A stretch of DNA of 63,984 nucleotides, the filler included, from Lenisia limosa (Eukaryota; Protista; Breviatea): assembly GCA_001655205.1 (NCBI GenBank). It is 17 parts of 17 records of this genome, joined end to end, with 100 filler letters (N's around TTAATTAATTAA, not from the genome) between each part and the next. Parts side by side here need not be neighbours in the genome. Positions count along the whole stretch, not along the records: positions 1 to 1,394 come from LPNZ01006489.1; positions 1,495 to 5,015 come from LPNZ01008760.1; positions 5,116 to 6,587 come from LPNZ01002378.1; positions 6,688 to 12,532 come from LPNZ01004511.1; positions 12,633 to 16,477 come from LPNZ01002004.1; positions 16,578 to 26,327 come from LPNZ01004385.1; positions 26,428 to 30,653 come from LPNZ01003239.1; positions 30,754 to 32,252 come from LPNZ01009005.1; 9 more parts are not named here. The stretch is one strand, 5' to 3'. The position numbers and the translations under genes were made by a program. The notes beneath the pieces are model-generated. The model did no database searches and was not told the origin of the DNA. It saw only the letters and a program-made list of their open reading frames with translations. Below, piece by piece: positions 20 through 62,798 of this stretch. Position 1 is the first letter of the stretch; the number at the start of each line of letters is the position of its first letter.

Positions 20-1225
20 AGCCCACGTTCATCAAGGCAAGACGTACGTCTTCTCGTTCACCTCAGGGGAGCAAAGGACAAGTTGGATGGCGACGCTCCA
101 GAACCGGCAAGTATCACTTAAGTCCGCGTTCTTCACCGTAAGGGGGTGGAGGTAATATTTGGGGTAATTAGTGGGGTATTGTTTGAGTGGGAGATTAGAT
201 TGTCTTTGTGTGGGGCTGAAGTGGACTAGGCCTTCCCTTTGGTCTGATGATGCTGATATGGAGATTGAGTCTTGTATTCTTACAGAAGCTACTGGCTTGG
301 GCTTTGTTAGCTGTTCAAGCCCTCATATTGAGGTTTTAATTTTAGGTTCATAAATTTCCATTTTTCAGTACGTTGGAGTGATGGGATGCGGTTCTGCAAA
401 AGCGACTGATCCGGGCTTTTTTTGTTTTGTTGTTATCAACTCCCGTGTGTTGTCAGCCAACAGAGNNNNNNNNNNNNNNNNNNNNNNNNNNNNNNNNNNN
501 NNNNNNNNNNNNNNNNNNNNNNNNNNNNNNNNNNNNNNNNNNNNNNNNNNNNNNNNNNNNNNNNNNNNNNNNNNNNNNNNNNNNNNNNNNNNNNNNNNNN
601 NNNNNNNNNNNNNNNNNNNNNNNNNNNNNNNNNNNNNNNNNNNNNNNNNNNNNNNNNNNNNNNNNNNNNNNNNNNNCGCAATCTAAAAAGCGCTGGGCAC
701 GGGTCCAACGCCACTATATGCTCTATTTCGACAAGCCACAGGTGGGTGTGGTTTGCGACTCGACATATCTGGCATTGGATGCTGTGTTGTATAATGGATA
801 AAAACAGGTGTATTTCGATTAGATTTGCTAAATTGGCAAAAATTAACAGTATTGAATATATTAGTATTGATTAATACTCTTTCGGTATTTCGACTCAATA
901 TCGTTGGCATTAAAGAGTACAAAGTATCTAGAAGCACCTTTCACACCCCCCCCCCCAGCCACTGGCCTGGGCTTTTTTNNNNNNNNNNNNNNNNNNNNNN
1001 NNNNNNNNNNNNNNNNNNNNNNNNNNNNNNNNNNNNNNNNNNNNNNNNNNNNNNNNNNNNNNNNNNNNNNNNNNNNNNNNNNNNNNNNNNNNNNNNNNNN
1101 NNNNNNNNNNNNNNNNNNNNNNNNNNNNNNNNNNNNNNNNNNNNNNNNNNNNNNGGAACATCAAGGGCAATGTCGACCTTTTCCAGTCCGCCGTTACGAC
1201 CGAGGGAGATGACCAGTTTTCTATA
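20..1225 (+). CDS. Tandem PH-domain protein, internal exons (partial)
   Basis: GT-AG exons: 20-110 (HQGKTYVFSFTSGEQRTSWMATLQNRQ, PH C-terminal helix with the conserved Trp), micro-exon 369-377 (YVG), ~679-745 (SKKRWARVQRHYMLYFDKPQ, PH beta1-2) and ~1155-1225 (NIKGNVDLFQSAVTTEGDDQFSI, PH beta3-5). Confidence 0.75.
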
Positions 1226-1964
1226 TGGTGAGATACAGCCTTATTTTTATTTCTCATTGCTATATAGTATATCATATAGTATATACATATATATCGATAT
1301 GGTGGGGTGAACAGGGGGGTTTCTGGTGAAGGGCTCTATTTGAGTGGGATGTGGTGTGTGGGGGAGTCTATATGATGTGTGTGTGGGGGGTGTTNNNNNN
1401 NNNNNNNNNNNNNNNNNNNNNNNNNNNNNNNNNNNNNNTTAATTAATTAANNNNNNNNNNNNNNNNNNNNNNNNNNNNNNNNNNNNNNNNNNNNGTAAGT
1501 GAAGGAAGAAATTTTTGAAGGATGTTAGCTTAAAGGTGCTCATCACGAGCCGAAAAATTCCAAATAATAATAATAAAAAACATTACCAAACATGGGTAGA
1601 CTTGTTAAAAAAACTTGACAAAATTAAATTTTGAGGTAAGAAGGAATCTCGTTGAAGACTATTGGCGAAAAGATACTATGTAAAATTATGAAAAAAAAAA
1701 AGGGGGGGGGGGAAGAAATTATCAATCTAAAAAAACANNNNNNNNNNNNNNNNNNNNNNNNNNNNNNNNNNNNNNNNNNNNNNNNNNNNNNNNNNNNNNN
1801 NNNNNNNNNNNNNNNNNNNNNNNNNNNNNNNNNNNNNNNNNNNNNNNNNNNNNNNNNNNNNNNNNNNNNNNNNNNNNNNNNNNNNNNNNNNNNNNNNNNN
1901 NNNNNNNNNNNNNNNNNNNNNNNNNNNNNNNNNNNNNNNCACAAACAAATCAGCAGTCGCATAC

Positions 1965-2654
1965 CTGCTGCGCTGGGGTCTGGAGAATGAAATTCGGATG
2001 AAAGAAAGAATGGGGTAAGATAGGTTCTAAGGGGAAAGAATGAAGCGGTGGGGAAAGTAGTGCAATTCCATCAATTCATCAGGAATACACCGTTCTATTC
2101 AAACACAATAAAACGACAATTTCCCGCAAACCTGCGTCCGCGAGAGCGGGATCTGGAGGGGCTGCGCGAGCTGAACAGTCAGGGGAAAGAAGAGAGGGGG
2201 TGATCAAGAGCCATAATCAACCAGAGAGACCAACCTTGAAGAAGAGCGACTCCTGAAGGGATTGAAATGAATGGTTAGTAAAAAAATAAGGGAGAAAGGG
2301 GGAATAAAGTAACTTGAAAGCGAGAGAAGCTTACGAAGAGCGAGATCTTGAGGTGCTAAATCGTGTCAGAACAGTTACTTCCACAAAATCGCATTAAATT
2401 GAATTCGCAAACACACCTGTGGGTCCTGGAACGAGAGCGACGTTTTCCAATGGAGCGAGACCTTGAACGAGAAGTGCTCGCGCTGCGAGAGCTACATAGA
2501 ATAACAACAAAGACATTTAATCCCTAAACAGCCTTGCAGTGAAACATCTTCCCAAAATAAAAACGACCATTAACCCACCTAGAGCTAGAGATAGAGCGAG
2601 AACGTCTAAATAAGGTTATTCACAGTGTTTAATCCAAAAATCAAACCTTCCCAT
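1965..2654 (-). CDS. Protein with N-terminal Arg/Ser-rich (RS) domain, 5' part
   Basis: ATG at 2654. Exons 2647-2654, 2579-2605, 2417-2491, 2335-2346, 2235-2252, 2132-2170 and 1965-1979 are all GT-AG and in frame: MGRRSRSISSSSSRSASTSRSRSRSIGKRRSRSRTHRSRSSSRSSSSSRSPSRSRSRGRRPQRS. The gene continues into the gap. Confidence 0.8.
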
Positions 2655-9600: not shown

Positions 9601-12426
9601 CACGCACTGGAGTTGCATCTATGGGGGTAGAGTAAAAGGAAAATTTATCAAAAAAAAAAAACCCCCATAATCAACTCCGATGGCAGCTCGCAAATGATAG
9701 GGGAAAATGATACGTTTTCCCCCACATGGTACACCCCCCCCCACGCTTTGAACAAGGGTTCCGTTTGTAATCGAGCGGATCTCCAATGAATGCTCCGAGA
9801 GGGCACAGACTGAATGGTGAGAAGTGGAAACGAGTAAATTTCAAAGATGGAAAATACTAGAGCTTCACTTTAGATTAGATTCCGAAACACCTGTATAATA
9901 TCGAGGATTTATCGAGGATTTATCGAAAATTCAGTCTTTTTTGAAAGTGAAGCTCTAGAAAAGACTAGTGTTAAGCAGGTATGTTACTGAGAACTGCCAC
10001 GTCATTAAGGGTGAGAACGATGAATGATTAGCATTACCCCCTTTATCTTATATAACACATTAGCATATATCTAGCAAAGAAAAAAAAAAAAAAAAANNNN
10101 NNNNNNNNNNNNNNNNNNNNNNNNNNNNNNNNNNNNNNNNNNNNNNNNNNNNNNNNNNNNNNNNNNNNNNNNNNNNNNNNNNNNNNNNNNNNNGATAAGA
10201 GATATTGTTGAATTATTGTATCATATTAATTCACCCAATCATTTGCCTTAGCTGCTCATGTAATTTATACTTATTATCATATTAATACATATCGATATAC
10301 ATATGTACATAATATAGCCCCCCCCCCCCACTATAGGGAGGAATCAAGGCGGTTTCCCTCGGGAGAATTGACCACTTTATTTCCAATCCGTTACGCGTGG
10401 GGGTGCCCTGGGTGGGTTAAAGCGGAAGAAATTTCGATGAAACTTGGATCTTCACCATCATCACCATCACCACATTCATCACCATCATCACCACATTCAT
10501 CCATTATCATCATCACCATCATCATCACCCATCATCATCACCCATCATCACAATAATCATAACCGTAATACTGCTGTCTTCACCTACCTCAAAGTCCACG
10601 AAGGTTGCGTAAGTGGAGTAGCACAATAGAATATCCGCTAAAATAGTAAATTCGGAAAAGAACAATAGAATATCCGCTGAAATCGTGAGATGCAAAAATA
10701 AACTGGAATGCCCCCCCCCCCCTTTTTCCTTCTTCACCTCTAATTAAGGCTTCACTGAGGTGGCCAAAATATCGGTACAACATTGATAGTTTTCGAGGAT
10801 TTATTGAATAATTCAGTAGATTTCTAATGTATATTATTTCACTTTCACACGAGAATATACATTAGAAATCTAGAGAAACAAATAAATACATAGGGATACC
10901 ATTCTTTTATCGAACCAAAGTGAAGCTCTACCTCTATTTATAATATTGCCCTCCCTCCCCTCTCCCACCTTCGGCAGTCACATGTGCACCTAATGGGGCC
11001 AAATTGTTGGCAATGGAAGGGACGTGGAGCTGAAGAAGGGGGGGAGTAAAATTGGAAAATTTATGAAACAAAAAAGCCCAAAAATCCTCTGATAACTGAT
11101 AACATACAACAAAACAAAAAAAGCCAAGGCCAGTCGCTTCTGCATCACCGCCCCATCACTCCGAAAAAAACTCACCTCTATGATTTCGCCTGTCATAGCA
11201 ATCAGGTGAAATTCGTTTCGAATGGAAATGAGCAAGCCAAACTAGGGTGTGAAAATAGAGGGGAACACAAATAAAACTCAAAAATTGAACCTTTAAACAC
11301 ACTCCCCCCCCCCCAGTGTGTCTCGGGGNNNNNNNNNNNNNNNNNNNNNNNNNNNNNNNNNNNNNNNNNNNNNNNNNNNNNNNNNNNNNNNNNNNNNNNN
11401 NNNNNNNNNNNNNNNNNNNNNNNNNNNCCTATGTATTATTTGTTTCCCTAGCTTTCTAATGGATATTATTTGTCCCCCCCCCCCCACGTCGCCGTTGTGC
11501 TCCACTACAGAAAGAGTGGTAGGGGGGCTGCTGGTGTTGAAGGACTTGAAGTGTTTCCAGGAGAGATTGGAATCGTCCCATCGCCAGGTTTCAATTGAGG
11601 ACTTCACGCAGGTTGCTAGCATCTTCGGAGAGGTGAGATTGGAAATTACTGAAGCAGAAAATTTAAAATAAAAAGGAAATATAGTTTTTTTTAATAATAT
11701 TTTTGGTGGTGGTGGTGGGGGTGATTGGAAATTGATGAAATAGAAAAATCGAGAGTTTTCGAAGATAAATCGAGAGATTCAGTCTTTTTTCGAACTTTAA
11801 GTGAAGTAATTCTATAACACCATGTAGTATATAATTCCCACATGGCTGAATCCTGAAGAACCCGACGAAATGAATCTGCACGGACCGGAGGAAAGGAGGG
11901 TGGGGCTAGGGGGTAAAATTGAAAAAAAAATATGAAATGTTTTTTAAAAAACAAAAATGAAATGTTTTTTAAAAAACAAAAATGAAATGTTTTTTAAAAA
12001 ACAAAACTCAAAATCAACTCCGTTGGCTGACAACACAAGAGGGTTGAGAACAAAACAAACAAAGCCCATATAGAAAAACATATTATATCAAACAGTAAAT
12101 GATATGATTTATATTACATGATATGATAAAATAAACAATCTACTTGACTGAATTGAGGTGCACAACATACCAAGGGATAGTTTCGTTGAGGGGGCAATAG
12201 TAGTATCAGTAGAGTATCAAAGCATATTTCAATATACTAAAATATAGAATATCATATGATATAATATAAAATATTATAATACGTAATAGTAATATAATAG
12301 ATATAATATACACGACAGAATACCTGGGGATAGTTTCGGTGGAGGGAGTGGTGAGTTTGGAGAGGGAGTAGACCTCGAGGGTAGGCTTGTTGGCCTTACC
12401 CGTCAGCATGAAGCAGCTGTTGCAGC
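6700..12426 (-). CDS. CNH (citron homology) domain protein, C-terminal part
   Basis: Exons 12324-12426, 11842-11905, ~11509-11622, 11176-11242, 10990-11029, 10588-10637, 10332-10407, 9745-9809 and from 9618, plus probable 3' exons ~8389-8472, ~7654-7702 and ~6700-6770. The joined peptide DILLCYSTYATFVDFEGTPTRNGLEIKWSILPRETALIPPYICALSEHSLEIRSITNGTLVQSMQLQCVRLL matches the CNH pattern (LLCY..FV..G..I.W..P..PY..EIR). One phase junction near the 11329-11427 gap is unresolved. Confidence 0.85.
10449..10560. repeat. CAT/CAC trinucleotide low-complexity tract (intronic)
   Basis: (TCACCATCA)-type repeats inside a CNH-gene intron. Similar tracts occur at ~12700-12770 and 56437-56610. Confidence 0.85.
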
Positions 12427-13579
12427 CTGGGGGTGGGGGGTAAAATCGGAAAACTTATGAAAAAAAGAGACCTATTAAAAGTAACATGGGGAAATTTATG
12501 AAACAAACCCAAATCAACTGGGGGGGGGGGGGNNNNNNNNNNNNNNNNNNNNNNNNNNNNNNNNNNNNNNNNNNNNTTAATTAATTAANNNNNNNNNNNN
12601 NNNNNNNNNNNNNNNNNNNNNNNNNNNNNNNNTGGGGGGGGGGTGGTCTCAAAACCCTGATTCATTCTTTGGATTAACTCTCTTCTAATCCGTTCAGATC
12701 ACCCATCATCCACCACCATCATCATCTTCACCACCAAAACGAACACCATTACCACTATCATTTGTAACCAGTGTAGCGTTCATGTATTATATATATCAAT
12801 GATATCATTAAAGGATTGCAAAGCCTTCTTTTGGCCAAATTCTCACTTAAATCTCATTTTTTGTCACAAATTATATAACCACCACAGCAACACCTTAGTA
12901 ACTACTCTAGCAACAGGAAGCCCATTTGCGAAATCTCGAGACGGTTAAGAGGCTACAGGTTATACCGGTGGGGGGGGGGGGGTATTTAACAGTTNNNNNN
13001 NNNNNNNNNNNNNNNNNNNNNNNNNNNNNNNNNNNNNNNNNNNNNNNNNNNNNNNTAACAGTTGTCTTCTGGTTCACAATTAAAACTGAATTCTGAATAA
13101 TATACAGGATAAGTCTGACCTATTTTTCTTGGGAATCCACATAGCAAATCGGTCAAGACTTATCCCGGTCACTTTTTATCTGAATTTTCGAAAAGTAAAT
13201 GGTCATATAGCATACACTTTGAGACTCCTGTGGGGTGTACTAAACTCTCGAGTATGACACCTGCAGAGGGGATTAATCAATCTCGAAAATGTGATTGGTT
13301 TTTGATTCTTGTTTTATTATTGTTATTAATGTTTCTCTCATTTTTCTTTAGTTCTCTTTTGTGTTCCATTTTCTCACTTGTTTGTGTCCTTGCGCTGGTT
13401 TCCTCGCCACACTGTGGCCGTCTTCATAAGAATTTCTTGAAAAAGAGAAATACTATACTAGGGAAACAAAAAAGCTGCAGTATGATGACAACAAATATAC
13501 CATTGTAACTCAATTGTAAAAACTTCAGAATTCAGCCACGTTTATTAACTAAAATGCCACATTAGGGGTGTGGTCATTA

Positions 13580-23163: not shown

Positions 23164-26100
23164 TTTCTGGTGGAATCAGGAGCAGTTAAAATTCAATCAA
23201 TATTTAGAGGTGAAATATGAATCAAAAAATTAACAAGGTTGTATCAGACTGAAGCTGGCCAATATACCATCACATTTAGAAGAGATATTAATGAATTACT
23301 GAAACATATTTTTAGAGTACCTAAAAAGACTGCAAAGTTATACACTTTCCAAGTCTATCTTGTATTTGGTAACCTTTGATTTCTTCCCAAAAAGTTGGTG
23401 AGTAGTATTTATTTATGTGTCTATCCTACTCCCACCTCCAAACAACAAATATACACATACACAGTCCCCACACAACCCACCCCACCTAACCAACCCCACC
23501 TTTGTATCTTGTTTGTGTCTTCTATCAAGTATCAAGTACTTCCCTAATGAAATGGAAGGAGGGACAATAAATCTGTTTGCAAAGAAGCAATAATAATAAT
23601 AATCATAAAACAGAACAAAAAAATATTAAAACAAAAACAGGTGAAACAGGTGAAAAAACAAAAGCAGGAAAATAAGTGTGCCCGATTAAAATATGGAGTT
23701 AGTTATCTTTTTTTTTTTTCACAGACCAAGCAAGACCGTGCAAGACCCCTTTTCTGAGAATTCGAATTTGAGTTTCGCACCTTCCTCCATTCTATTCCCC
23801 ATGGCCTCAATATCCCCGGCGTTATTTGTAGGTGAAAAAGGACCACAAGAAACCTTCCTGCTGGAAGAGGTGCCACCACCACCCTTCACGTGGTATGGGG
23901 ATGTACGTGTGTGTATGTGTTTGGAGGGGGGGGGGTTGAGAGGCATGAAAAGCATGTTTGACAGGTGGTGTAATTATCTTTTTTGTTTTAAACAGGGTGG
24001 GGGATGGTGTGTGTGGGCATTATAGCTTTCCAGAAACTTTGCCCTCAATCCTAAATCTTAAATTTCCCGCCCTAAATCTGAGATAATGTGAAAGGGTATT
24101 GGTTTGGGGGGTGGGGCTTCACTTTGGTTCGAAAAAGACATAATTTCTCGATGAATCCTCGAAAACTATCGATATTTTACCGGTCTTTTTAGAACCGAAG
24201 TTAAGCTCTGGGGAGGGGGGAGGGCGGTGTATTGCCTCCCTTCGTAAAGTAAAGGGAGCTTGTGGGAGTGTGTAAAGGATAAACTGGGGTAATGGGGTGG
24301 TAGGTGATAATGGGGCTCATGTGTGCAATACAGTCATTAAAAATACGAAATCTATGGAGAAACGAAAAAGACATACTGAAACACATATTAGCATGTACTT
24401 GTGACTCCCTAATCAGAAGTCCGGTGGAATTTTGGAAGTTTTTCAGGACACCTGGTACATGATAATCTGGAGTAAGTTAGAGCTAGGATGTGTATTTATA
24501 TGCATAACTCCTAGGTTAGAGGAGGCCAAAAAGAGGAATAAGAAGAAGAATATTCATAAATAATTGGAATTTTGGAAAATTGAATTATTCAGAGTCTACT
24601 GATGGGGTCTCTCTACCACCCATGGTCTACTAGAATTTTAATTATGAGTGATTATAATTAGATTATATCGGTCCTGATTACACACTACTATTTACCCTCA
24701 TCATAAACTGTTATCCCCCCCCCCCCGTCTTTACATTACCCACATTCTCACAATTTTTGGCCGCAGAAAGACAACCCAGATTGCTACTGCAGCTTATATT
24801 GTGAAGTAGGGAGGAGGGTTTGCTATATTATATCATGTCACTTTTTTGATCTTTTTTTTCACACGTGTGTCGTTGTTATTTCAAATCCTCATGCTAGTTG
24901 TTATTCCTCTTGTTGCCACCTAGGATCCCAGATTTTGCAAAATTTAGAATTCTAATACCACCCCTTCTCTTCAGCATACACTGAAATATGGATGTCTTCT
25001 ATTAATATTTTACCAACGTATTAGGAGAATATCTTGCACTTATGCCGAAGATACTTGGAACAAAGCAAGGGTATGATGGTGAATATTGGAGCAAACTATT
25101 CGTTGAAAATGATAGTTTACATGTGAAAATATAGAAAAAGACAATTGTGTCATTACTTATCGCGGATAGTACTGTCTAATTTGGACGTGGTAGTAAGATT
25201 TGACTAATATGGATCTAGATTAACCAATATGGAAGATCACATTTAGTATGTGTGACATTTTTTCAAAAAAGGTATAATGATAAACTGCGACAGGGTTAAG
25301 TCTTCACACATATGATTCAGATTCTAAAGATATTACATAAATAAAGGATATTTAAACAAAATAAGAACAGAAAATTTATTTGACGACGCGCAGATGATGG
25401 CGTTGAGCGTATATGTCGCGTTATTTTCTGCAGCCACCCTACTGTAGGGGGGGGGGCAACTTATATATGGTATGGGTGTTTTATTAAGTAAGAGGGGGGC
25501 GGGGTAAATATTTCATTGTAAAGAAAAGTATAAAATATTCTAAATTACTATAAAAGGCAACTTATTTACAATCAATTGCAACAAAATAACCATCAAAGGC
25601 AACTAACAGACCCAGGAACCGCATTTTTTGTATTATAAGGCCTCCGACCCAAGAATGAAGAGAGATGATTTCATCTTTTACGTGAGCTTCTTCTGTGCAG
25701 TATTTATATGCTACTAAATACTAGTATCTCAAATACTATGGTATATATATTGGCCATAATCATGATTTTTTTTTATCCACTGGACTGATGGATGAACTTG
25801 ACTTTCTTTGGTTTATGTTTCTGTCTTGTTTTTAACCATTGTGTAATACAAATACTTGTCGCAGAGTTGATTCTGTTTCATGTCCATTCCCCCCCACAAG
25901 GAACCATGTCTTTGGAAGAGAAAGTGAAGCTCTACCAGTGATTAAGAATTTGTGTGATTATATTGGTGGTTATGCTTTCTTGTCTGTTCTCTCTTCTCAA
26001 ATAATGACCATATGAATGATTGATAGATTAGGATTATTACTTTTAAATCCTCAACTTATTGACCCTTTTTGATTAGTACATGTTTAGTATAGGTCGTGTT

Positions 26101-26427: not shown

Positions 26428-27888
26428 TCAACATCTTCCGTGTCCTCAACACCAATGATGTTCTGACCACTCTTGATGTCTCTTTCTGCAAGGGTGTGTG
26501 GGCCTTGTTTTGTTTATTTCCAAAGTCTCGCGTGTTGGAAATAGACTCGCATGTTGGAAATAGTTTCACGCTGATAGCGTTTTTATTCTGTTTCAAACCG
26601 GTATTATTTTATGGACGTCTTTGACAGCTTTCGTCATCTTTTTTCCCTGCAGTGTCTACTGATGCGCTGAAGAAGCTGGCTGAGACCCTGACAACTCGCC
26701 ACTCTCTTCAGGTCGGCTTCATTCAGGTCTTATTCACTGTTATGTTCTTTTTAGTCTCCAAGTTTTCCTCTTTAAATCCTAATATAATTGTATATGAAAT
26801 ACTGATAAGCGTCACCTCTCATTGTAATGACAGCTTTGTCACCCAATAGGCTATCACGAAATTAATCTTCATTCTGCATGACTGGATAAGTATGACTAAC
26901 TGGCCTGGGCTTTGTTTGTTTTGTGGTTATCAACCTTCGTGTGTTGTTAGTCAGAGTTCATTTGGTTTTGTCATTAATTTTCCAATATGACCCCCCCCAG
27001 ATTCTCGGTCTCATCGGAAACGAATTTGGCAAATCAGGCATGAAGCATGTCTGCACCTGCATCAAGGTTGGGTGGGGGGGGGGGGGNNNNNNNNNNNNNN
27101 NNNNNNNNNNNNNNNNNNNNNNNNNNNNNNNNNNNNNNNNNNNNNNNNNNNNNNNNNNNNNNNNNNNNNNNNNNNNNNNNNNNNNNAGCATGAAAAATTA
27201 TAGTTCACACGTGGTGTGAAGATCCAACAATTAATATGGTTGAAGACTTCTTTTTTGAATTGGTTTTTTATCCAATGCACCATTATATTTACTTGACACC
27301 TCCAGGAGTCTCTCTCTCTGAAGAAGATCTTCATCGATAGCAACAAGATCCCTGACAAGGTAGGGACCAACGATCATAAAACTCTCCATTCATGCACTGT
27401 TCGGAATAATCCCTCTTCCTCGTGCCTTGAAGGCAGCTGGAAGCCTCAATACAGAGTGCCATCTAACCCTCCAGTCGGCTGAAGACCTTGTGGAAGCCCT
27501 CTCCAATAACCGAGTTCTGACTGTCCTGTCCATGAAGGACAACCTCTTCACCCGCGACGCCCTCATCGACATCATCTCCTGCCTCGAGCATAACAACGCT
27601 CTCAAGCAGCTCGACCTCACCGGTAAAGGGGGCATCAAACATTGAAGCCGTCCAAGTACGTTTTCACCTTCAGAGCTATTTCCAACAATATCAACATCTA
27701 TATTGGACGGCTGGGCATATACTGTATTTTTATTTCTCATCTCAAACATATATTGGGCTATTTGCCTCTCTTTCATTGTAAGTGGTCATTTGTGCACTGC
27801 TGACACATCAGGCAACCCCGGATGCGACTACAAGCAGCAGCTCGTGGAGGTGGCTAAGAAGAAGTGCAGAGCCCAGTGTCTCATCTAG
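26428..27888 (+). CDS. RNI-like leucine-rich-repeat protein, 3' end
   Basis: Six exons: NTNDVLTTLDVSFCK, STDALKKLAETLTTRHSLQ, ILGLIGNEFGKSGMKHVCTCIK, ESLSLKKIFIDSNKIPDK, SAEDLVEALSNNRVLTVLSMKDNLF..LEHNNALKQLDLT, GNPG..CLI*. Spacing is ~28 aa with LxxLxLxxN. Confidence 0.85.
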
Positions 27889-30625: not shown

Positions 30626-30819
30626 GTAGGTAGGTAGTCATGGGGGGGGGGGGNNNNNNNNNNNNNNNNNNNNNNNNNNNNNNNNNNNNNNNNNNNNTTA
30701 ATTAATTAANNNNNNNNNNNNNNNNNNNNNNNNNNNNNNNNNNNNNNNNNNNNAGAGTTGATTTTGGGCTCTTTTTGTTTGTTACTAATTTTCCAATTTC
30801 ACCTCTCCCTCCCCCACAG

Positions 30820-32239
30820 CAAACGTCAGCGCAGTAGTAGCCCATCACAGTCTGCCATTCGTCCTGTCCGCGAGCGAGGACGGACAAGTCGGCTTCTTCT
30901 CGACCTCCAACTTCCAGCCGATTCAGATGCGCCCCATGCAGTTGAGTGTAGGCCGAGAAATTCAGACTTTTTCGAACCAAAGTGAAGTTTTACCGCCTAT
31001 CTCATTCCTATGTAGCGAGTTTGGACGTTAGCCCTCCATTCCGAGGCAAATGACCTGGCAATTGGATGTGACAGCGGTTTTACCGTCATCCAAGTGGGGC
31101 CTGGGGGCGGGGGTCGATATGTGATATGTATATTGTTCTTTTTTCTTCTTCACAGAAGTGTATGTGTAGATATTGTCTGCTATGTTTGTTTTTTTTCTTT
31201 TTTTGTGTGGAGTTTTCTTGGACCTGGGGGAAATAATTGAGAATATTGTTCAAGACTTATCCTGGTCACTGTATCTAGTATCTAGGTGTAGGTGCGGGGA
31301 ATGGGGAGGTAATATTATAAGACATATTAAGTTTCACCCAATTTACCCCCCCCCCCCCCCNNNNNNNNNNNNNNNNNNNNNNNNNNNNNNNNNNNNNNNN
31401 NNNNNNNNNNNNNNNNNNNNNNNNNNNNNNNNNNNNNNNNNNNNNNNNNNNNNNNNNNNNNNNNNNAATCGTCTTTGCAAACAATTACTCTGTAAGTGGG
31501 CCGATTCTTCTTCTTCTTCTTCTTCTTCTTCTTTTTCTTTTTCTTTTTCTTTTTCTTTTTCTTTTTCATCTGTTTGGTGTCTAAGACCTTTAGTCTTCAT
31601 CGCGTTACCAGTTTTCCTCATCGGAATTGCTTCTTCACCTCAATTTTCTTCGTTTACACTATTCTCCATTGCAATTTCCTTTGATTTTCTTTGTTTTGTT
31701 GTTTTCAACCCTCTTTGAGGATTTTGGGCTTTATTTTTTCATAACTTTCCTTCATTTTACTCCCCCAGATCAAGGCTGCCAATCTGCGCACTATTGATGA
31801 TGATGTTCAAGATGGCCGACCTTTGGTGGGGGTGGGATGTCATTGTATTTTGAAATGCGAAGGTACATACATGCACAGCATATCAGATCATGGCATGTCA
31901 ACTGTACTTAAATTGGAGGAGNNNNNNNNNNNNNNNNNNNNNNNNNNNNNNNNNNNNNNNNNNNNNNNNNNNNNNNNNNNNNNNNNNNNNNNNNNNNNNN
32001 NNNNNNNNNNNNAGCAGTGACTGGCCTGGGCTTTGTTGTTTTCAACCCTCGCGTGTTGTCAGCCAACAGAGTTGTTTGGCTTTCTTTGTTTCATAAATAT
32101 TCCATTTTTTGATTAGTATTCGCTAATATTCATCGAAGTTTCCTTTGTTTAACTCGCCCTCCCCTCAGACGATCCCAACAAAAGACCTCGGCACCTGTGA
32201 AATGTACCCCAACTCCCTGACTCACAGCTCAAACGGACG
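30820..32239 (+). CDS. COPB2: Coatomer subunit beta' (Sec27), internal exons
   Basis: NVSAVVAHHSLPFVLSASEDGQV, RVWTLALHSEANDLAIGCDSGFTVIQ, IKAANLRTIDDDVQDGRPL and KDLGTCEMYPNSLTHSSNGR match, in order, the beta'-COP motifs NVS..HP.LP.I.TGSEDGTV, RVW..A..N..AIG.DEG and KD(M/L)G.CE.YP....H..NGR. Confidence 0.9.
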
Positions 32240-42785: not shown

Positions 42786-42979
42786 GCCTCATTTCTTCAG
42801 AACGTACACCCCAGGAGCAAAGATCGAAATATACAACGCACCAATAAAACATGGAGTCCTCGTTTTGACCCCTGTTTGTGCCAAAATGCTCGGAGGATTT
42901 GTCTACCAATTTAAGCAGTGAGGGGCACTAATATTACGTGTTTTTTTTTTCCAAACATTTCCCATTTACTCCAACCCAG

Positions 42980-45900
42980 TCGAGGGTCTTCTGCAGTGGA
43001 GCACAATAACCCTGAACCGGACCAAGCAGATCCCACCAATGTACGTGGGGGCTGGATGCAGTGCTGCAGAAGCGACTGGCCTGAGCTTTGTTTGTTTTGT
43101 CATTTTTAGCCCTCAAACCAACAGAGTTAATTTGGGGTTGTTTTTAACCCTCAAACCAACAGAGTTGATTTGAGGTTGTTTTTTGTTTCATAATTCACGT
43201 CCACCCCCCTCCACCAAAAGTGGCAATTCGAATTTGAGGAAGTAACACCACTGAAGTGGGCACTTTTCCACTCGTCGCGAAAACAGTCCTTTTTCGTAGA
43301 CATTACTAATTTCCATCAAAGTCGTTTTTTCTGATCAAAATTGTACTAGGGGAAGCATTGTGCATACCTGCATGTAACACTAACTCTTCAGACTACTTCT
43401 GCAGGCCCCGAAGATGGTCACAGTCCACCCCAACAACAACCGCCTATTAATCCAGTGCAGCATCACTCTAGTTACCCCCCACAGCCACCCCATAAACAAC
43501 AGCCTCAGCGGCACCAAACTGCCCAACACCCACCCACCAACTTCCCTCAAAACTCGGAACCAGAACCCCAGCAATTCTCTCCGTTCCCCCAGAATAATAC
43601 CAATTATCCGCCGAATCAGAATCCGAACCCACAGAATCCCAGTAACCAATTCCAGCAATTTATGGCCCCCCAAGCTGGGCGGCCCTCTATATTCCCTCCG
43701 AGCCATAATCAAACGAAATCCTCTAGGTGGGGGGGGGGGNNNNNNNNNNNNNNNNNNNNNNNNNNNNNNNNNNNNNNNNNNNNNNNNNNNNNNNNNNNNN
43801 NNNNNNNNNNNNNNNNNNNNNNCACTATTTTCTGAAATTTCACTTCATCCCTTTACCCAACCCCTTTCCTGTTTTTCTTTTTTCTGACATATACTTTGTT
43901 TTTTTGACAATCCAACTGTTTTAGTCGAGCCACGTCCCCGGCTCTGAGTAACCACTCTGTAAAGTCAAATCAAAGTGTCCAAAGCAATCAAAGCAACCAA
44001 AGTAACCAAAGCAAGCAGAGTAATCAGACGAGGGCTAGCAATAAGCAGTATCCTCCTCCTATGTATAGTAATCAGAGTAATCAAAGTAATCAAGGCAATA
44101 CTTCCACGCCCCATAGTCGTGCGTCTCCCAATGAGGTTGGTGACTTGCCTCTTTTGGCAGTTTTAGACTGTATTAGGGTCTTTTGAAAGGGGACATTTTT
44201 GTGTCAACCTATTTATTGACAATTTTTCAGTCCAATAAGCCGCACTCCCCTCAAAGAAACACAGCTTCTGTAAGAGGAGCAACTTGATGTCGTTTTTTTG
44301 AAAGATATTGTTTCATAGATTTGTTCAATAGTCCTATTTGAAATCATCGGAGGACTCAATTTTTTATCTTTCTTCTATAAGTCTCAAGATTTGATAACTC
44401 AGTGTTAGTTGCTTTGCTTTATTTTTTACGGAATTTTGATTTAACATGAGCTACCTCAAGAAACCTCTTTGCTTAAATATCAGTTTACTTGTTAGGACAG
44501 TTCCACACTAGCCTCATCCGCAGCAAATGCCCCTTGTTTGTCGGGATTTGGAGCCTTATTCGTTATTACAGGGATATATTCATGAAGTTATCAAACCTCG
44601 ATCAAAAGATCCAGGAATAGTCTTGACGCCATTAACCCATTAGTGCCCCGTACCGTGTCACGACAGGCATCGGGCTCGGAGTTGTCCGAACGGTCCACAC
44701 CAGACTCAAGAAAAACTAAGGCCCCTGATGCCAAGGGTGGGAGATGGGTGAAAAGGAGATAAGGAGCTTGGCATATTATTGGAACTACAAAACGATGTGT
44801 ATAATACATAATTACTTTTTTCGTTTCCTTTTTGACAATTTAGGATCAGCAAGGAAGAAGCCCAACACTACCCCAGGTTTGGATAAAATACACTTATCAT
44901 ATGTTCCTTCACAGAAATCCTCGATATCCTCTCAATCTATCACCACTCTTTTTCGAAGAATGACCCCAATATTAGTGTTGTACTCTGCGTTATTTACAGT
45001 TTTCAAGTAATTATGTTTATTTTTGAAATTCAAGGGATCGTGCTGTTAGTATGCCAATTCAAGGGATCGTGTTGTTAGTATGCCAATTCTAGGGATCGTG
45101 TCGTTAGTATGCCAATTCAAGGGATCGTGTCGTTAATATGCCAATTCAAGGGTTCGTGTCGTTAATATGCCAATTCAAGGGTTCGTGTCGTTAGTATGCC
45201 AGCCCCCCTTAAAATTTAATTGTCAAGCAAAACCAATTCAGAGTCCTGCACCAACTATACAGTACTTGTCATAAACACGCCTGCATCTAAGATCATATTC
45301 CTGTTGGAATGTCTCATATTCCAGTACAACCGTCAGTTGCAGTGTCCGATTCTGACAGCGAATTTGAGGACTGAAGATGGTGGGCTTTCACGTTGCAAAT
45401 GAAAAAATAGACAATGATAAGTTATTTTTATCGAAGACCCTCCCTGATTTTATTTATGCTCTAGAAAACTCTTGAACCGCAAGGTCGTGAATGCTCTGCT
45501 GCTGCTGCTGTTAGTGATGTAATCCGAAGGCGCTGTTTGTTTTTATGGATCTGATTTTGTTGTGTTTTGTGATTGAAGTGAATGTAGAAAATGTGTGTGC
45601 CCCTTCATTTACATCCTTGGGTGGATTGAAACATCAAGTAAATAATGTATAAGTGTATGTGTTTCCAATCCTCTTACAATTCTACAATTAAAAGGTCTTT
45701 TGAGATTGGCCATGTTCCAATTTGGATATTTCATTGAAGTATATTAATTTGCTATTGAAAGGCATTGGAAAGGCATTGATAAAAAAGCCTGAGTAATATA
45801 GTAATATAATGTGAATACAGCAGCACAGCAGAAATACGATGGGTAACCTAGCCTTAGAGTAGGACAAAATGACAAATCTCCGCGGCCGGAATTGGTTATA

Positions 45901-50975: not shown

Positions 50976-51789
50976 ATATATATATATATCTATAAAATAC
51001 CCGATAGGGTCGTACCCCTAGAAATTAATATTTAATACCCTCAACAAAAATTCCTGAAATCGTAGAAGGCGTTCTTAGCTTAAGCTAATGCTTGATTAAG
51101 TTAAGCCACTTACCTAAGTAACAACAAATGGAGAGGAGATNNNNNNNNNNNNNNNNNNNNNNNNNNNNNNNNNNNNNNNNNNNNTTAATTAATTAANNNN
51201 NNNNNNNNNNNNNNNNNNNNNNNNNNNNNNNNNNNNNNNNAAAAGCCAGACAAAAACACAAAAACAAAAACAAGCCCGAGCCAGCCTTTGAAGAGTCCCA
51301 TCACTGCTCGATCACCCAAACGTGTGATATAATATAGTATAGTATATGCAAATAAGATAAAAGATGAGAGGGGGAGGGGAGGGTTATCAATAAGTCCTGA
51401 CAATATTTTTGTTTGATCTTTAGTCAATCATGTCAGGAATATTTACGATTTTATAATTATGTATTGACATCAAAGGCATGAACAAAAGACTCTAGGATCT
51501 CTGTTAGATTCTGACGTTGTGTGGTCGTGGAAATGGCTGCAAGCTAATATTCCATCTGGTAAAACACAGTTTTCTTGACTTTGTTTACAAGGGACTCCTA
51601 TCTACAATGGTATATTCAAAGATAATCACAACATTGTGTGAATACAGATCAAATAAAGGCTGTCCCTGACGAGATGGTTAAACCACTTGGAACCTCAATG
51701 AAGTATCACAATCCTCAATCATAGAAATCTTTTGTTAACTTGGTGAGGGATAATTATTACCATAAATGGTAAGTGTTTTTTTAACGAAT

Positions 51790-52761
51790 TTACCAAAGTA
51801 GACGTTTTGAAACAACTGGTTGAGCTGCATGGAGCCGAAATTGCCCACAGAGACATCAAACCGAATGCATCTTGTCCATCTCTGCAGTGGACGTTCTATC
51901 CTAGCTGGATCGTTCAAGCCAGTGCTTGCTAACAAGAGGGTTTGATTTTTTTGAAATGGATGGATTATTTTCTTTTAGGAGCAAGAACACCTAAGGTAGC
52001 TGTTTCGTGAAAGGAAACGGGATTATGAACGGGTCCTGAAAGTGAGTTCATGAGTGGTAGTATATCATTACTTCTTGTGTTGATGTATTGAGCACGGAAC
52101 ACGCAACATAAATGCACAAACTTGGAACATCATGGTGGAGGATAAGATGCTTGTAAAGGTTGACATGATAGCGCATATTTACTCACACTCTATGGTACCA
52201 GAAGTGAAGAGATTATATGTATATATTTTTTCTTCTTCATTGTACCATTAAAGTATATATGATATGATATGAATATGATAACTATAAAAATCATATCTGA
52301 TTGCAAATAATAACAATCATACACTACTATATGTATGATTGACTCGACTCTGTTGGCATGCAGATGTCCACAATAGAATAATATTAATTACCAAATCATT
52401 TGCCTTCCAACTCTGTGAACACAGCTTTCTGCGTGCCTCCCCAGCATACCACCATTGTTAGCACCGTGAAATAAACAGCCGAATTGGACTGAACGTACGT
52501 GCCTGCATTGTGAACAAATGAAGTACTGATCATTCACTACCACTCCTCTCCCCTGAATTATAAAAATATCATATCAAAATAACCTTGGGTTCTGGAACAA
52601 AGTGATCGGGCCAATTTTTGGTAATATTCTTGGGAAAAATTCATGTTGCCACAATACCGCCACCGCCCCGCACCAATAATAGCTGCCGCAATAGCAAGGG
52701 TGAAGGGGCTCAGAAATTCGACGACAAAGATATACCAAAGACAGAGGTGTTGGATAGATTT
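51790..52761 (-). CDS. Hypothetical protein exons
   Basis: AG/GT-bounded protein-like segments, e.g. STGLNDPARIERPLQRWTRCIRFDVSVGNFGSMQLNQLFQNVYF and TSFVHNAGTYVQSNSAVYFTVLTM. Not phased. Confidence 0.35.
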
Positions 52762-53346
52762 CTGGGAGGGTGAAAATGGAAAATTAATGAAATAAAAAAG
52801 GCCCAAATCAACTCTGTTGGCTGACTACAACATTCAAGGGTTGATAACAANNNNNNNNNNNNNNNNNNNNNNNNNNNNNNNNNNNNNNNNNNNNTTAATT
52901 AATTAANNNNNNNNNNNNNNNNNNNNNNNNNNNNNNNNNNNNNNNNNNNNACGGCTTCGGTCCTTATTTTTTATTTCTCATTGCTATGTATCAACACTAC
53001 GTATAATATATAGCAATGGGAAATGAAAAGCAACGTTGTATCTGGTCGAAGCCGTCCACATCATCACGCTTATAAGCGATATTGAATTATAGTATAGTAT
53101 TATTCACTACAAACATATAAACCTCACAGGTCATGATCGCTTTCTATTTGTACTTTGACCGAGCCATATTGTTTTACCCAGCTTTATCGGTCTAATTCCG
53201 TAGATTCTGAGCCTGTTGTCCCGATCACATTAAATCTTGAGTCCGCCAAACCCGTACCGGTAAGACTCAGAAATTAGGCCTCACCCTGTCACAGAAAAGT
53301 GTTATCAAAGATCCCTCACTCCTCTTCTTATTAGCTATAATTCCCC

Positions 53347-54558
53347 AGCCCTGTCCACCTGAACAATCGAAGCACATTGGAATCTTTAATCTTCCCAAGT
53401 CGTTTAAAGAGGGTTTGTTGGATCTACATATGATATAAAATATTGTCTGTTAAACACATTTACTATCTGGAGTGATGATCTTCAAACTCAGACGCTTATC
53501 GTGTCAGTGATTTTTCTAATACCAATTATATCATATACGACTTCAAAATGCTTTCTTGGGGGGTCAAGCTTTTATCGCGTTTAGATGACCTGTACGACTA
53601 CATTTCAAAGTTTGGTACCATTGAGAACCTCAACATCATCAAAGACAAGTCCACCGGAAACAACAAGGGCTACGCATTTGCCGAAATGTCATCACCAGAA
53701 GAGGCATGGATGCTGAAGCAAAAGGGAACCGGTGGGGGGGGGGGGNNNNNNNNNNNNNNNNNNNNNNNNNNNNNNNNNNNNNNNNNNNNNNNNNNNNNNN
53801 NNNNNNNNNNNNNNNNNNNNNNNNNNACTGTGTTGATTTAAGTTTCTTTTGTTCCATAAATTTCTACTTTTATTTTGATTACGTCATAGGCTCGGAGTTT
53901 GGCGGTCAACTTCTTCGAGTTGCTGATGCCCACAGGAAATCGGAGTGAGCATACTGCTTTTTGTTGTTAACCTATATCGGTCATTTGGTTGTCATAGTTT
54001 ATGTGGTTATTTCAAATCAGTTGTTGTTTTGTTCTTTTGTTTTGCTGTTTTTTTGTGTCCCTATGTAACCACTCTAGCGAGCTTCACAAACCAAACCCGT
54101 TCAAAACGGAACCGCCACGCAAAACCCTTCAGAACTTTGTCCCAAGTGACCCAGTCGATAACTTCAAGGCCCCAGCCCTCCCTGATATGTCCAAAGTATG
54201 TACTTACCAGAATCGTAATTTCAATCTCAGTATACCATCTTACGTTTTGGTGGAGTATAGCCCAAGGCAATATCTTTGTTGTCCGTAAAATCCTTTCTAT
54301 CTTCATATCTGCAATTCTTTACAACAAAGTAATCCCAATATCAATGTCAAAATCCTTTATTTACCCAGGGAACATAATGATTATCCCAAATCTCACCCCT
54401 CCATCCTAGTTCTCTCCCCGGTATCCTTTATATTAAAGCACCAATTAATTTCCCAGCTCCCTCCAACGTACCTCGGGCGTATCATGACAAACCCCCAATT
54501 TCTGGCCATGCAGTCAATTGTGTCCAAAGTCGTTGCTGAACGCAAGGCCGGACGATAG
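53347..54558 (+). CDS. RRM RNA-binding protein, 3' part
   Basis: Exon from 53585 reads DLYDYISKFGTIENLNIIKDKSTGNNKGYAFAEMSSPEEA (RNP1 KGYAFAEM), followed by GSEFGGQLLRVADA. The probable RNP2 (IGIFNLP) is in the exon at ~53347 and the last exon ends with TAG at 54558. Confidence 0.85.
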
Positions 54559-55470: not shown

Positions 55471-56355
55471 TTAGAGAAGTGAGCGGGGCACTCTTACTAT
55501 TTTTTTGTGTCAAAATGGGCTGTTTTCATTCTTGCAGCGTGCTGTTTCGAAGTGGGGCAAGCCCCCTCCAAATTATGTCCCTGGTTTGTTGGATTACTTT
55601 TGCGCTCTCGCTGAGCTCTTTTTAATTCGGGGCATTAGTTTACTTTTTTGAGAGTGTTTGTGAATCTGGAAAGAACGCATTATTGTCAGTCCCTATATTT
55701 ATTCTGTTAAATTTCTTGAATGAAGAATGAAACCTTTTTTTTACTTTGTGCTTGTCTAAAACTCTGGTTAAGTTTTTTATTTCTTTTTCCTCTTTTTTAC
55801 TACCATTCTATCTTCTTGTTATTGTTGACAGTCATACATATGTATTACAAGACTGTCATTAAGTATAACCCAATATCTCGTTGAAGGATGTGGATAGAAC
55901 TCCTCTCATCTCTTAGATTAGGCCAGCACTAGATAAGCTATTTTTCTTTTCAAAAAGAAATTCGTTTTTTCACCATGTTCTCAACCCGCTTTTTCTTCTT
56001 TACATTCACTTTTTATATTACAATATTTTTTAATATCAAAAAACAAAAAACAAATCATGGTAAAAATAATGTCAGCTTTAATATAGCATTTTTACGAACT
56101 ATTCCTGAAGGTCTTGACCACCCCTCCATCTTAATACCCTTCTAATAGCAATTTTTCTCTTCCCCCANNNNNNNNNNNNNNNNNNNNNNNNNNNNNNNNN
56201 NNNNNNNNNNNTTAATTAATTAANNNNNNNNNNNNNNNNNNNNNNNNNNNNNNNNNNNNNNNNNNNNGAAACAAAACAAAAGCCCAAAATCAACTCTGTT
56301 GGCTGACAATACACAAGGGTTGATACGATGCCGCCATATCGTTACCCCAGCATAC

Positions 56356-57281
56356 CCTCTTTTTTGGGGTCAGTAACCCATTGAACAACTTGCCGTCTTG
56401 AGGGGGGTGTAGCTAATGAGGCACTGGAAGGTGTGGTCATGAAGATGAAGATGTTGATGATGATGATGAAGAAGAAGAAGAAGATGATGGTGGTGGTGAT
56501 GATGATGATGACGGTGGTTGTGATGATGAAGATGAAGATGATGGTGGTGGTGATGATGAAGAAGATGATGATGGTGGTGGTGAAGACGATGTTGATGATG
56601 ATGATGGTAATAAGATATACAATGATAGAAATATGATATGTTCATATGATCATATGGTACGCGCAAGCTTATTAATTAGCCCACCCCCCACCTTAAGTCC
56701 AGTTCTCCCGTTGGTGAACCCGGGATAAACGGCGTGGACAGTCCTGAGTTGAGGCATGACGGGAGAGTGGAAGGAAACCAACCGCCCGCCCCAGCTGAGT
56801 CCACTCCAATTGACCCTCCGAATGCGGTCACTATGCGTCTGGAGAGTAAAAAATGTTTTTTAATAAAGAGACAAAATAGAGAAACAATATGAGTTTTAAT
56901 GATGCTCAATCATGCGCCACCGCATCATCCCAACATACCTGACAAGCGCAAGGCCAAGACCAACGCCGCCATACGACGCAGACGTGTCCGTATCGGCCTA
57001 ATTGGGTCATGGGGGGAGTAGAAATGAAACATTTATAACCCCCCCCCCCCCAAATCATCNNNNNNNNNNNNNNNNNNNNNNNNNNNNNNNNNNNNNNNNN
57101 NNNNNNNNNNNNNNNNNNNNNNNNNNNNNNNNNNNNNNNNATGAGTATGGTGAGTGCTTTGTAAATAGAGCCTCATACTTAACACCCCACGCACCTGCTC
57201 AAATACGCCAAAAACGCGGCGCATGGCAACAGGCTTGAGACCCACGCCGGTGTCAATAACCTCCACCACCAGTTGGCCCTC
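56356..57281 (-). CDS. Eukaryotic two-component histidine kinase, HATPase_c region (partial)
   Basis: Spliced exons 57195-57281 (LVVEVIDTGVGLKPVAMRRVFGVFEQ: G1 and F boxes), 56939-56997 (ADTDTSASYGGVGLGLALVR: G2 box), 56692-56838 (RIVTAFGGSIGVDS) and 56356-56423. Confidence 0.92.
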
Positions 57282-60763: not shown

Positions 60764-62533
60764 CGTGTGGGCGTCCCAAGCCTCCGCTAAGCAAAGAGCG
60801 GGGAGAGCAGGTCGCACAATGCCTGGAACGTGCTACAAGGTCTACACCAAGGCCACTCATGACGTTCTTGTCGTGGGTTGGATTCTCAATGAATCATGAT
60901 CATATCTAATTAGGGCTTCACTTCGAAATGAATAAGACCGGTCAAATGGTATCGATAGTGTTCGAGGATTTATCGAGAAATTCAGTCTTTTTTCGAACCG
61001 AAGTGAAACTCTGTCTCAATGTTAAAGGGCTCCAAGGGTTAATGGATTTAAGGACAATATTGGCTCAAAAGGGGGAGGGACGAACGAGGCATAACCGAGT
61101 GAGAACAGATATTTTTACATTTATTATCATGTTTGAACCAATTATTTTTATTCTATCTTCTTGATATTCTTCACTTTACCCAGCCCTTCGATCGATCTGA
61201 GGCATCCTCCTCGCCCCTGGAAAATACGATTCTGTTCCTCCGAACCCGGTAGGCTGTTTATCAGCCAGAAAAGACTGCGTTTTTGAGAAATCTCTGAAAA
61301 CTTATCCGGACTTGCTTCCCCATTTCTGTAACTCTGGGATTCTTGTTCCTCTCAAATAACATAAGAAAAAGGCTGAGCCTCACCCCTTAGGTTACATCAG
61401 GAGGGAGGTGTGCTGTCTCTCCTGGCGGACTCCCTTGACCCCCCTGAGCCGGACCTGGTTCGTTGGTGTTTGTTATGTGTTCTGTATTGAATTGGGGAGT
61501 TGCGCTTTTGTTTGTTCGGCTTCTTATAAGGTTGTGATCAAATCGTATTTTAACCTGTATTATGAAGCTTTTTGTGTGTGTGTGTGTTTTGTTTGGTTGT
61601 TTGTTTCGTTTTATTGAATGGAGATAATTGTTTTAGGTTAGAGCAGCGCTGGACCGATTAGCTATACAAGGTGCACTCACGCACAACTCTGCAAACGCCG
61701 ATGTGACCTTATTAGGTAACACCCAGGGCATTTGAGTGTTCTCCTCTCACCACCCAGGGCATTTGAGTGTTCTCCTCCCTGTGACCGTTCGGATTACGCG
61801 CATGATTTGGATGGCGTGTTGTGCTGGCATGGATAACCCTGGTGAGGGGGGGGGGGGGTTNNNNNNNNNNNNNNNNNNNNNNNNNNNNNNNNNNNNNNNN
61901 NNNNNNNNNNNNNNNNNNNNNNNNNNNNNNNNNNNNNNNNNNNNNNNNNNNNNNNNNNNNNNNNAAGAAAAAAAACCCTCATCCCGCAGGCCTCATTACG
62001 GATGCCCTTGTCCTAGCCTCAGCACTGACTACTGGTGATGTGTATAGGAACCCCTCCAGAATCCATGTCAAGGTGGGCATCTTCAACATAATCACAATTT
62101 CTCAATACACCTTCAAAAGTAGTCCTAATTCCACAATAAACCCTAAATAATCTGCAGAAGCGACTGACCTGGGATTTTTTTTTTGTTTGTTTTTTTGTTG
62201 TTGCTATTAACCCTTGTGTGTTGTCAGCCACAACAGAGTTGNNNNNNNNNNNNNNNNNNNNNNNNNNNNNNNNNNNNNNNNNNNNNNNNNNNNNNNNNNN
62301 NNNNNNNNNNNNNNNNNNNNNNNNNNNNNNNNNNNNNNNNNNNNNNNNNNNNNNNNNNNNNNNNNNNNNNNNNNNNNNNNNNNNNNNNNNNNNNNNNNNN
62401 NNNNNNNGACAATCAGCTAAACTCCGAAAGTAAGCAGGGTATGGCAGCCCGGCTCGAAGCCGATTCCGGCCGCCTATCCGAACCGATTTCAGTCGTCCTG
62501 CTCTGGCGTCACTGGCGGACCCGAATGCAGAAC
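60764..62533 (+). CDS. DEAH/RHA-family RNA helicase, motif VI to HA2 region (partial)
   Basis: [28 protein letters not shown] (motif VI), [68 protein letters not shown] and [13 protein letters not shown] follow the DEAH winged-helix/HA2 order. Confidence 0.92.
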
Positions 62534-62798
62534 GTACGGCCCGGGCGCTGGTGCTCTATGTGGGGGGTCTGTATTATACGTAAGGCTTCACTTCGGTTCG
62601 AAAAAATACTGTCTCGATTAATCCTCGAAAACAATCGATATTTTCCAAGTTTTTTTGAACCTAAGTGAAGCAATTGCAGAAGCGACTGGCCTNNNNNNNN
62701 NNNNNNNNNNNNNNNNNNNNNNNNNNNNNNNNNNNNTTAATTAATTAANNNNNNNNNNNNNNNNNNNNNNNNNNNNNNNNNNNNNNNNNNNNCGTTAT

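Follow-up and report, generated by a model that had tools for sequence, protein, structure and literature searches.

We describe a repeat family, here called family B, in a 63,984-nucleotide stretch of DNA (the window) from the breviate Lenisia limosa (assembly GCA_001655205.1). Family B is a real, high-copy, splice-active repeat of approximately 150 nt, whose copies lie in the sense orientation of their host introns and in many cases supply the working 3' splice site. With moderate confidence, we read B as an aged introner-like element, of the same kind as the introner elements of Micromonas (class IE-A) or the introner-like elements (ILEs) of fungi, which likely spread by a transcription-linked RNA route and whose copies also stack at existing acceptors.

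The window is made up of 17 short scaffolds joined by N-spacer-N linkers and is mostly the DNA of an AT-rich, very intron-rich eukaryote; its gene with a CNH domain carries ∼12 introns per kb of coding sequence. We annotated 77 introns by hand from RNA contigs, PDB and Pfam matches (beta'-COP, PH, CNH, Nt_Gln_amidase, RMI1, RRM, HATPase and helicase) and open spliced frames, with several of the protein matches being weak because the exons encode only 20–50 amino acids. RNA gave the host strand for two scaffolds, Pfam/PDB matches together with open spliced frames gave it for seven, and for 51241–52850 an open frame was the sole guide. Gene spans were drawn by hand, some genes were possibly missed, and 52% of the non-N DNA falls outside the spans.

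A profile of B was built from 18 window pieces, which as seeds match it by construction. Scanning the window gave 30 matches at E ≤ 5, of which 21 exceeded 9 bits; the reversed window scored at most 5.6 bits, and five block shuffles at most 3.0 bits. Unseeded copies in another assembly reached 121.8 bits, with no match in the reversed control, and the repeat family proposed in the initial annotation therefore exists. It is present in 19 of the 77 introns, on 10 scaffolds, at a density of one B intron per 3 kb; one of the 19 depends on a 6-bit, 19-nt piece truncated by a scaffold end. Pairwise identity among aligned copies has a median of 71% (range 58–90%, 61 pairs), so the family is old, as had been supposed. 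In a matching public DNA run, 2,427 of 195,906 contigs fall on window positions 1–1240, where the summed contig depth is 331,373 over the B core and about 15–34 on the single-copy flanks, and the summed depth at 11030 and 12038 is of the same order. Read loosely, as summed depth is not a true copy number, this suggests ∼10^4 copies of B, in agreement with the density in the window. Just 12 of 180,449 polyA-RNA contigs fall on the same 1–1240 interval. Short B motifs gave no match to viral contigs, the 5' motif gave none to genome contigs, and the core motif matched one contig. The portions of the literature available to us hold no description of family B, and none of acceptor stacking beyond PMC3879977; a look through supplement parts of PMC12130899 and PMC9860276 for three short B motifs was also negative, a weak result since those files may hold no family sequences.

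The full B unit begins with a GT end (GTACGT/GTGAGT-like start), followed by a G/T-rich body, a T-rich tract, a C-run and a closing AG. The pieces found in the window are as follows.

260..368, + strand: older, diverged copy whose terminal AG is skipped by the mRNA (profile 43 bits; RNA joint 139->677, 44 letters between)
368..465, + strand: second copy with a full 5' end, beginning on the G that closes the AG before it, its 3' end disappearing into a gap (76 bits)
957..978, + strand: 5'-truncated piece right behind a C-run and AG, inside intron 742-(gap) (9.6 bits; RNA joint 742->1155)
9619..9700, - strand: 3' half ending at the acceptor of intron 9619–9744, CNH-domain gene (RNA contig; 48 bits)
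11030..11175, - strand: whole-intron copy, donor to acceptor, phase 0, hairpin deleted (RNA contig; both ends p = 0.003)
11906..12068, - strand: 5'-truncated copy whose tail is triplicated and reaches acceptor 11906 (67 bits; open spliced frame)
12427..12522, - strand: two tandem 3' modules behind a C-run and AG, ending at acceptor 12427 (profile)
25797..25900, + strand: degenerate copy running into a likely acceptor, Nt_Gln_amidase-like gene (12.5 bits; downstream-exon Pfam E = 0.016; tail p = 0.046)
26885..27000, + strand: 5'-truncated copy ending at the acceptor of intron 26712–27000, LRR-like gene (81 bits; open frame)
30754..30819, + strand: 3' part ending at an acceptor, beta'-COP gene (profile; protein match; open frame)
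31672..31768, + strand: 5'-truncated copy, hairpin deleted, ending at the acceptor of intron 31492–31768 (profile; open frame)
32013..32109, + strand: copy that stops ∼59 nt short of acceptor 32168, with a second acceptor-like module behind it (86 bits)
43041..43220, + strand: copy starting at the donor of intron 43041–43391, with an internal tandem duplication, RMI1-like gene (5' end p = 0.003; Pfam RMI1_N_C)
51241..51321, - strand: mid-intron 5' part truncated by a scaffold end, with weak support for the host strand (profile)
52762..52850, - strand: core and 3' end at a likely acceptor (profile; host exon by open frame alone)
53827..53889, + strand: 3' part stopping ∼20 nt short of acceptor 53889, RRM gene (profile; Pfam; tail test)
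56268..56325, - strand: 5'-truncated core cut by a scaffold end, HATPase gene (profile; Pfam)
56998..57050, - strand: degenerate 3' part close to acceptor 56998 (12.4 bits; tail p = 0.002)
62151..62241, + strand: 5'-truncated copy running into a gap, DEAH-helicase-like gene (55 bits)
62674..62692, + strand: 19-nt piece right behind a MITE, cut by a scaffold end (6.0 bits, below threshold)

That B supplies splice acceptors is most directly seen in an RNA contig from which introns 9619–9744 and 11030–11175 are excised exactly. The second of these, a 146-bp intron consisting of B from donor to acceptor between two CNH exons in phase 0, is as first described. Nine introns had been proposed in which B runs into the acceptor AG: those at 9619 and 11030 are confirmed by RNA, those at 11906, 12427, 27000, 30819 and 31768 have open spliced frames, 52762 is a weak case, and the AG at 368 is bypassed, with an RNA contig joining ∼137 to an exon within the gap 466–676. 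Together with the independent contigs described below, the RNA contig and open frames bear out a splice-site-donating family, with B supplying a working acceptor for ∼1 in 6 introns (about 10 of the 60 acceptors scored). When the C-run and AG were masked, a B-like tail (p ≤ 0.01) was present at 9 of 13 B-labelled acceptors and at 1 of 47 others, which rejects the tail as a generic acceptor of this genome; the labels rest on the same similarity, so the test proves only that the tail is non-generic. The TCATAAAT-like motif 20–30 nt upstream of the AG probably holds the branch point. U12-type introns were ruled out, as the window donors (GTRNGN/GTGGGG) differ from what we take to be the U12 donor.

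A second acceptor module with a TTCATCGAAATTTC-like motif closes three introns, at 10408–10445 (- strand), 32118–32168 and 47890–47940, and stands right behind a B tail in two of them; it is possibly a diverged B subfamily. Introns in the window commonly open with long G runs and close with long C runs, where assembly gaps cluster (9619–9744, 10331, 11487, 29166, 32240, 43727, 53732 and 48487).

B is in the sense orientation of its host in all 19 window introns and in all eight independent matches with a resolved host, so the claim that it is always sense holds. The probability of 0.5^17 first attached to this was overstated, because acceptor-supplying copies must be sense and tandem pieces are not independent; a cautious figure, counted by scaffold, is 0.5^10. 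As a control we used a palindromic miniature inverted-repeat transposable element (MITE) of ∼98 nt, MITE family A, whose nine intronic copies are split five on the host strand to four on the opposite strand (three of these four share one gene). Six further copies lie outside recognised genes, so that MITE A occupies at least 15 loci, strand-random and both intronic and non-genic (including 5747–5844, 9859–9955, 18627–18724, 20874–20970, 24114–24209, 60912–61012 and 62583–62671). None of the 19 B sites falls in the 52% of non-N DNA outside the hand-drawn genes (P ∼ 8e-7), where MITE A does occur.

An independent set of copies came from 58 small contigs of one bacterial genome bin, reached through a match to the B core motif. 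Several of these contigs are eukaryotic, carry MITE A at 91% identity and are bin contamination; eight (L087, L088, L092, L095, L096, L110, L116 and L130) share repeats and spliced genes that point to this eukaryote or a close relative. Among 47 contigs tested there was no single-copy overlap with the window. Nine B matches of at least 9 bits lie on five of the 58 contigs, with none in the reversed control and none on the last 11 contigs. Eight of the nine have an exon-like host, all in sense, and the host in L092 is not discernible. Frames remain open across the B introns of L088 and L116, where L116:1979–2090 is a decayed whole-intron B; Pfam is silent on these contigs and there is a weak galactokinase-family match (E = 1.3). 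The best copy, L087:5349–5489 (121.8 bits, 84–89% identical to window copies), lies behind an older B tail with its AG and terminates at an acceptor; at L087:5850 a sub-threshold truncated B follows a conventional CTAAC..CTAG acceptor.

The two ends of B behave differently. Most copies lack part of their 5' end and occupy the 3' end of longer introns. The 5' end coincides with the donor in 2 of 14 testable B introns, at 11175 by RNA and at 43041 by frame; exactly position 368 is also where two further DNA contigs begin to match B. Among the nine B introns with both ends visible, only 11030–11175 is B end to end, and six hold at least 140 nt of unrelated sequence. The B-sized RRM-gene intron 53732–53889 (158 nt with its gap counted) is a possible second whole-B intron, partly hidden by that gap. 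Downstream of B, intron 43041–43391 has 170 nt of other sequence; a possible 21-nt in-frame micro-exon lies at 43221–43241, behind the AG that closes the B tandem, and if used it would make 43041–43220 a second whole-B intron, the frame being kept under both readings.

At 368, 957 and 12516 a pyrimidine-preceded AG stands immediately before a B piece and has its G or AG in common with it, and the B–B junction at 368 is unbroken in a DNA contig spanning 1–403. By a strict tally, such an AG precedes the B 5' junction in 4 of 23 cases, compared with a 2.1% background (P = 0.0013), and in the one case testable by RNA (368) the old AG is skipped. An upstream consensus that is T/C-rich and acceptor-like, with an agreement of only 0.47, is seen in 42 of the DNA contigs that begin matching at 374.

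The closest competitor to our reading, which we consider unlikely though a serious contender, is a plain aged introner, where each B intron arose from a whole B inserted in an exon, the 5' parts are later MITE or microsatellite insertions and decay, and the tandems are local duplications. The whole-intron copies at 11030–11175 and L116 are what it predicts, the ∼12 introns per kb in the CNH gene demand heavy intron gain, and the intron ending at L087:5489 resembles an old B split by another repeat. It is also helped by the beta'-COP gene, whose three B-bearing introns (at about residues 230, 321 and 341) are presumably not at human COPB2 positions, with the human exon ends that we take to be K298 (phase 0) and R365 (phase 2) corresponding instead to window introns 31094 and 32240. 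This comparison, for which the literature available to us yielded no COPB2 exon data, would favour lineage-specific B positions; the intron at 31094 has a weak B-like end before its gap. Our check of beta'-COP orthologues found an intron in residues 229–365 in 0 of 80 loci, these being metagenome-contig transcripts or intron-poor genes. Against a plain introner stand the scarcity of B 5' homology at the donor (2/14) when the 3' end is kept in most copies, the unrelated sequence in six of nine complete B introns, and the non-B acceptor-like ends upstream of truncated B at 957 and L087:5850. The initial proposal that B may generate introns is plausible, with a single wholly-B intron in nine, B's 5' end at the donor in two of 14, and beta'-COP loci that hold no informative introns.

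The opposite extreme, that B never makes introns and is a splice-neutral acceptor module spreading among intron ends by insertion or ectopic gene conversion, with whole-B introns left by deletion of the older part, strikes us as improbable. The concentration of copies at the 3' ends of longer introns and the tandem tail modules at 12427, 32168 and 47940 would suit it, as would weaker tails resembling B, one at 42979 and one ahead of the gap at 31360, the latter at a position presumably shared with human. It does not account for B's own 5' end with its GT coinciding with the donor at 11175, 43041 and in L116, nor for the two DNA contigs that match from exactly 368.

Signs of DNA transposition were sought at the ends of B. 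No target-site duplication (TSD) was seen at B junctions, where repeats average 1.4 nt compared with 1.6 nt for other introns, so the short duplications that the initial annotation had suggested looking for did not appear. Full copies have no terminal inverted repeat (TIR), their 5' ends not being complementary to the 3' end. We therefore give little credence to an ordinary non-autonomous DNA transposon or Helitron-like repeat that inserted at random and from which selection removed antisense copies and kept acceptor-capable ones. Its ∼10^4 copies would fit such an element, as would head-to-tail tandems and 5' truncation, which we take to be Helitron-like, and in the accessible part of PMC9860276 most described introners are DNA-transposon-derived. 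In addition to the missing TIR and TSD, this explanation is opposed by the absence of B from non-genic DNA, where strand selection would not act, by the strand-random MITE A in the same introns and in non-genic DNA, and by the lack of a T bias in the base after the AG. Helitrons insert at an A|T target, end in CTRR with a nearby hairpin, and are strand-random; the base following B varies, B ends in YAG and its strand is fixed, and a Helitron-like element was rejected. Insertion into existing introns with purging of antisense copies, an alternative offered at the outset, survives in part: insertion describes most copies, and purging alone is insufficient because B is absent from non-genic DNA and the MITE control stands at 5:4.

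An interrupted inverted repeat is present in the core, with 84.8% of aligned cells pairing, so the described arms are there. Folding of all six B cores is no better than shuffles (z -0.26 to +0.52), and covariation in the stem, where a look for compensatory changes had been suggested, is not above control (76 of 500 shuffles equally high). Of 12 aligned copies, 4 have a deleted or broken stem, and the RNA-confirmed 146-nt intron is one of these. Whole copies mostly lack a folding excess, with two low z values apparently arising from an A/T palindrome and from G-run/C-run pairing outside the core. Rfam covariance models gave no match over any B copy and one chance match elsewhere. Intron 9619–9744 folds end to end (z -2.55). 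We rejected the hairpin as a functional RNA, and an intron-encoded structured RNA family, for which the pairing arms speak, is scarcely credible given the absence of an Rfam match and of any folding or covariation excess, the broken stems, and the 12 of 180,449 RNA contigs against 2,427 of 195,906 DNA contigs on 1–1240 (a polyA library would miss small RNAs).

Comparison with known systems, drawn from the accessible portions of the papers cited, places B nearest to the introners. It works like an RNA-type introner: it is a repeat family in introns of unrelated genes, with copies spliced at their own sites (RNA, 9619–9744 and 11030–11175). It is an incomplete member, since its intron positions are not proven to be new and the both-ends criterion (PMC9860276, PMC12130899) is failed by most copies, similarity at both boundaries being found in 11030–11175, the only such case among 9 complete window introns, and in the degenerate L116. 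Likened by features and not by sequence, B resembles Micromonas IE-A in its thousands of copies, confinement to transcribed regions, sense orientation, remnants in canonical introns, and nested or merged copies (PMC3879977, PMC4540971). The Micromonas elements are sense-only, with 32 remnants in conserved canonical introns; these and the nested or merged copies were taken as a sign of mobility at an unspliced stage (PMC3879977), and reverse splicing into R-loop DNA has been proposed (PMC4540971). IE-A copies are mostly whole, near-identical introns whose remnants lack splice sites (PMC3879977), whereas a minority of B copies are whole, identity is ∼71% and partial copies supply the acceptor. 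Like fungal ILEs, B forms repeated introns whose splice signals are canonical and which, as they decay, come to resemble ordinary introns (PMC3609843), without TIR or TSD (PMC9860276). ILEs, however, are whole introns with a stable predicted structure and up to ∼500 copies (PMC3609843), while B has ∼10^4, mostly partial copies with no folding excess and no stable conserved secondary structure.

MITE-type DNA introners are likewise non-autonomous and short, and an introner may co-opt part of the target splice site (PMC9860276, PMC12130899). Unlike them, B shows no TIR, TSD, opposite-orientation or intergenic copies, and most B introns would fail the both-ends filter; this class was rejected. 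A works-like analogy may be drawn with linear group II introns, which by the first reverse-splicing step alone give precise 3' junctions and NHEJ-like 5' junctions (PMC3280974); B would similarly have a precise 3' junction to the downstream exon and an error-prone 5' junction. B is not a member of that class, being 150 nt, non-catalytic, non-coding and spliceosomal. In a [D1,2] stwintron, an internal intron splits the donor G|T and its excision rebuilds the donor; AG|T junctions occur at 368 and 43220, but there is no G before the upstream donor at 138 or 43041, and this arrangement was also rejected.

For the introner-like reading that we prefer, movement through RNA is likely, judged from the strand and junction pattern: sense-only and genic-only copies, no TIR or TSD, a fixed 3' end and a variable 5' end all fit such a route. 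By the geometry of linear group II introns combined with selection, excised B intron RNA would be joined by its 3' end to a transcribed-strand target (reverse splicing's first step) and copied into DNA, with the 5' junction sealed inexactly, in many cases at an AG or G common to both sides. In exons, insertions that were precise and full-length would give rise to new introns, and truncated ones landing in exons or mid-intron would be lost to purging. An insertion at an existing acceptor would be neutral, since the donor upstream survives and B supplies an acceptor in place of the old one. Such a filter would leave sense-only copies stacked at acceptors, tandem B–B junctions and few whole-B introns. 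More specifically, and only tentatively, B may have moved by half reverse splicing, with a precise 3' joint to the exon and a repaired 5' joint, repeatedly at existing 3' splice junctions.

Several observations weigh against this account. We saw neither an RNA intermediate nor a reverse transcriptase nor a presence/absence polymorphism, the RNA evidence consists of two contigs from a single study, and intron creation by B is unproven, with the region free of introns in all 80 beta'-COP loci. The greater length of B introns relative to other introns (277 nt compared with 180 nt) reaches only p = 0.09. The old-AG signal was noticed post hoc with hand-set junctions; among its cases, 12516 is at a scaffold edge and two are B behind B, and the independent contigs alone are not significant (strict 1/11, P = 0.21; relaxed 4/11, P = 0.07). 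In two tandems (32013/32168 and L087:3756/3863) the downstream piece is the more decayed, contrary to the newest copy lying at the acceptor. Lastly, a sub-threshold B piece (L095:3167, 8.9 bits) lies between convergent genes, where the host strand is ambiguous.

The window contains several other features. A 941-bp near-palindromic element at 40824–41764 (arm identity 82%) adjoins an open reading frame (ORF) at 40059–40445 that we take to resemble a tyrosine-recombinase remnant. Two intron-less scaffolds, 49416–50975 and 62793–63984, carry long ORFs (535 amino acids) and bacterial-looking genes, and are likely not from the eukaryote, or viral or bacterial in origin. Within intron 11906–12323, 12165–12200 (- strand) is a decayed copy of the end of the upstream exon, and an ankyrin-like gene at 21150–23165 (- strand) has about ten introns at repeated positions, without B. 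Further repeats comprise a second palindromic MITE and an AT-rich intronic repeat (13107–13173, 17268–17342, 18045–18133 and 42666–42765; 52968–53100, 18352–18456 and 10208–10257).

B would represent a class that both-ends introner screens drop as 'secondary insertions', though its copies supply working acceptors. Whether any introner moves through RNA or reverse splicing is debated, with the available part of PMC9860276 arguing that most are DNA-based and that of PMC4540971 proposing R-loop reverse splicing. With ∼10^4 sense-only copies and asymmetric junctions, B makes an RNA route testable by counting strand, distance to the AG and 5' junction context. If half reverse splicing is the true mechanism, the ∼10^4 stacked copies would record, across the whole genome, spliceosomal retrohoming at work and a parasite serially replacing working acceptors.

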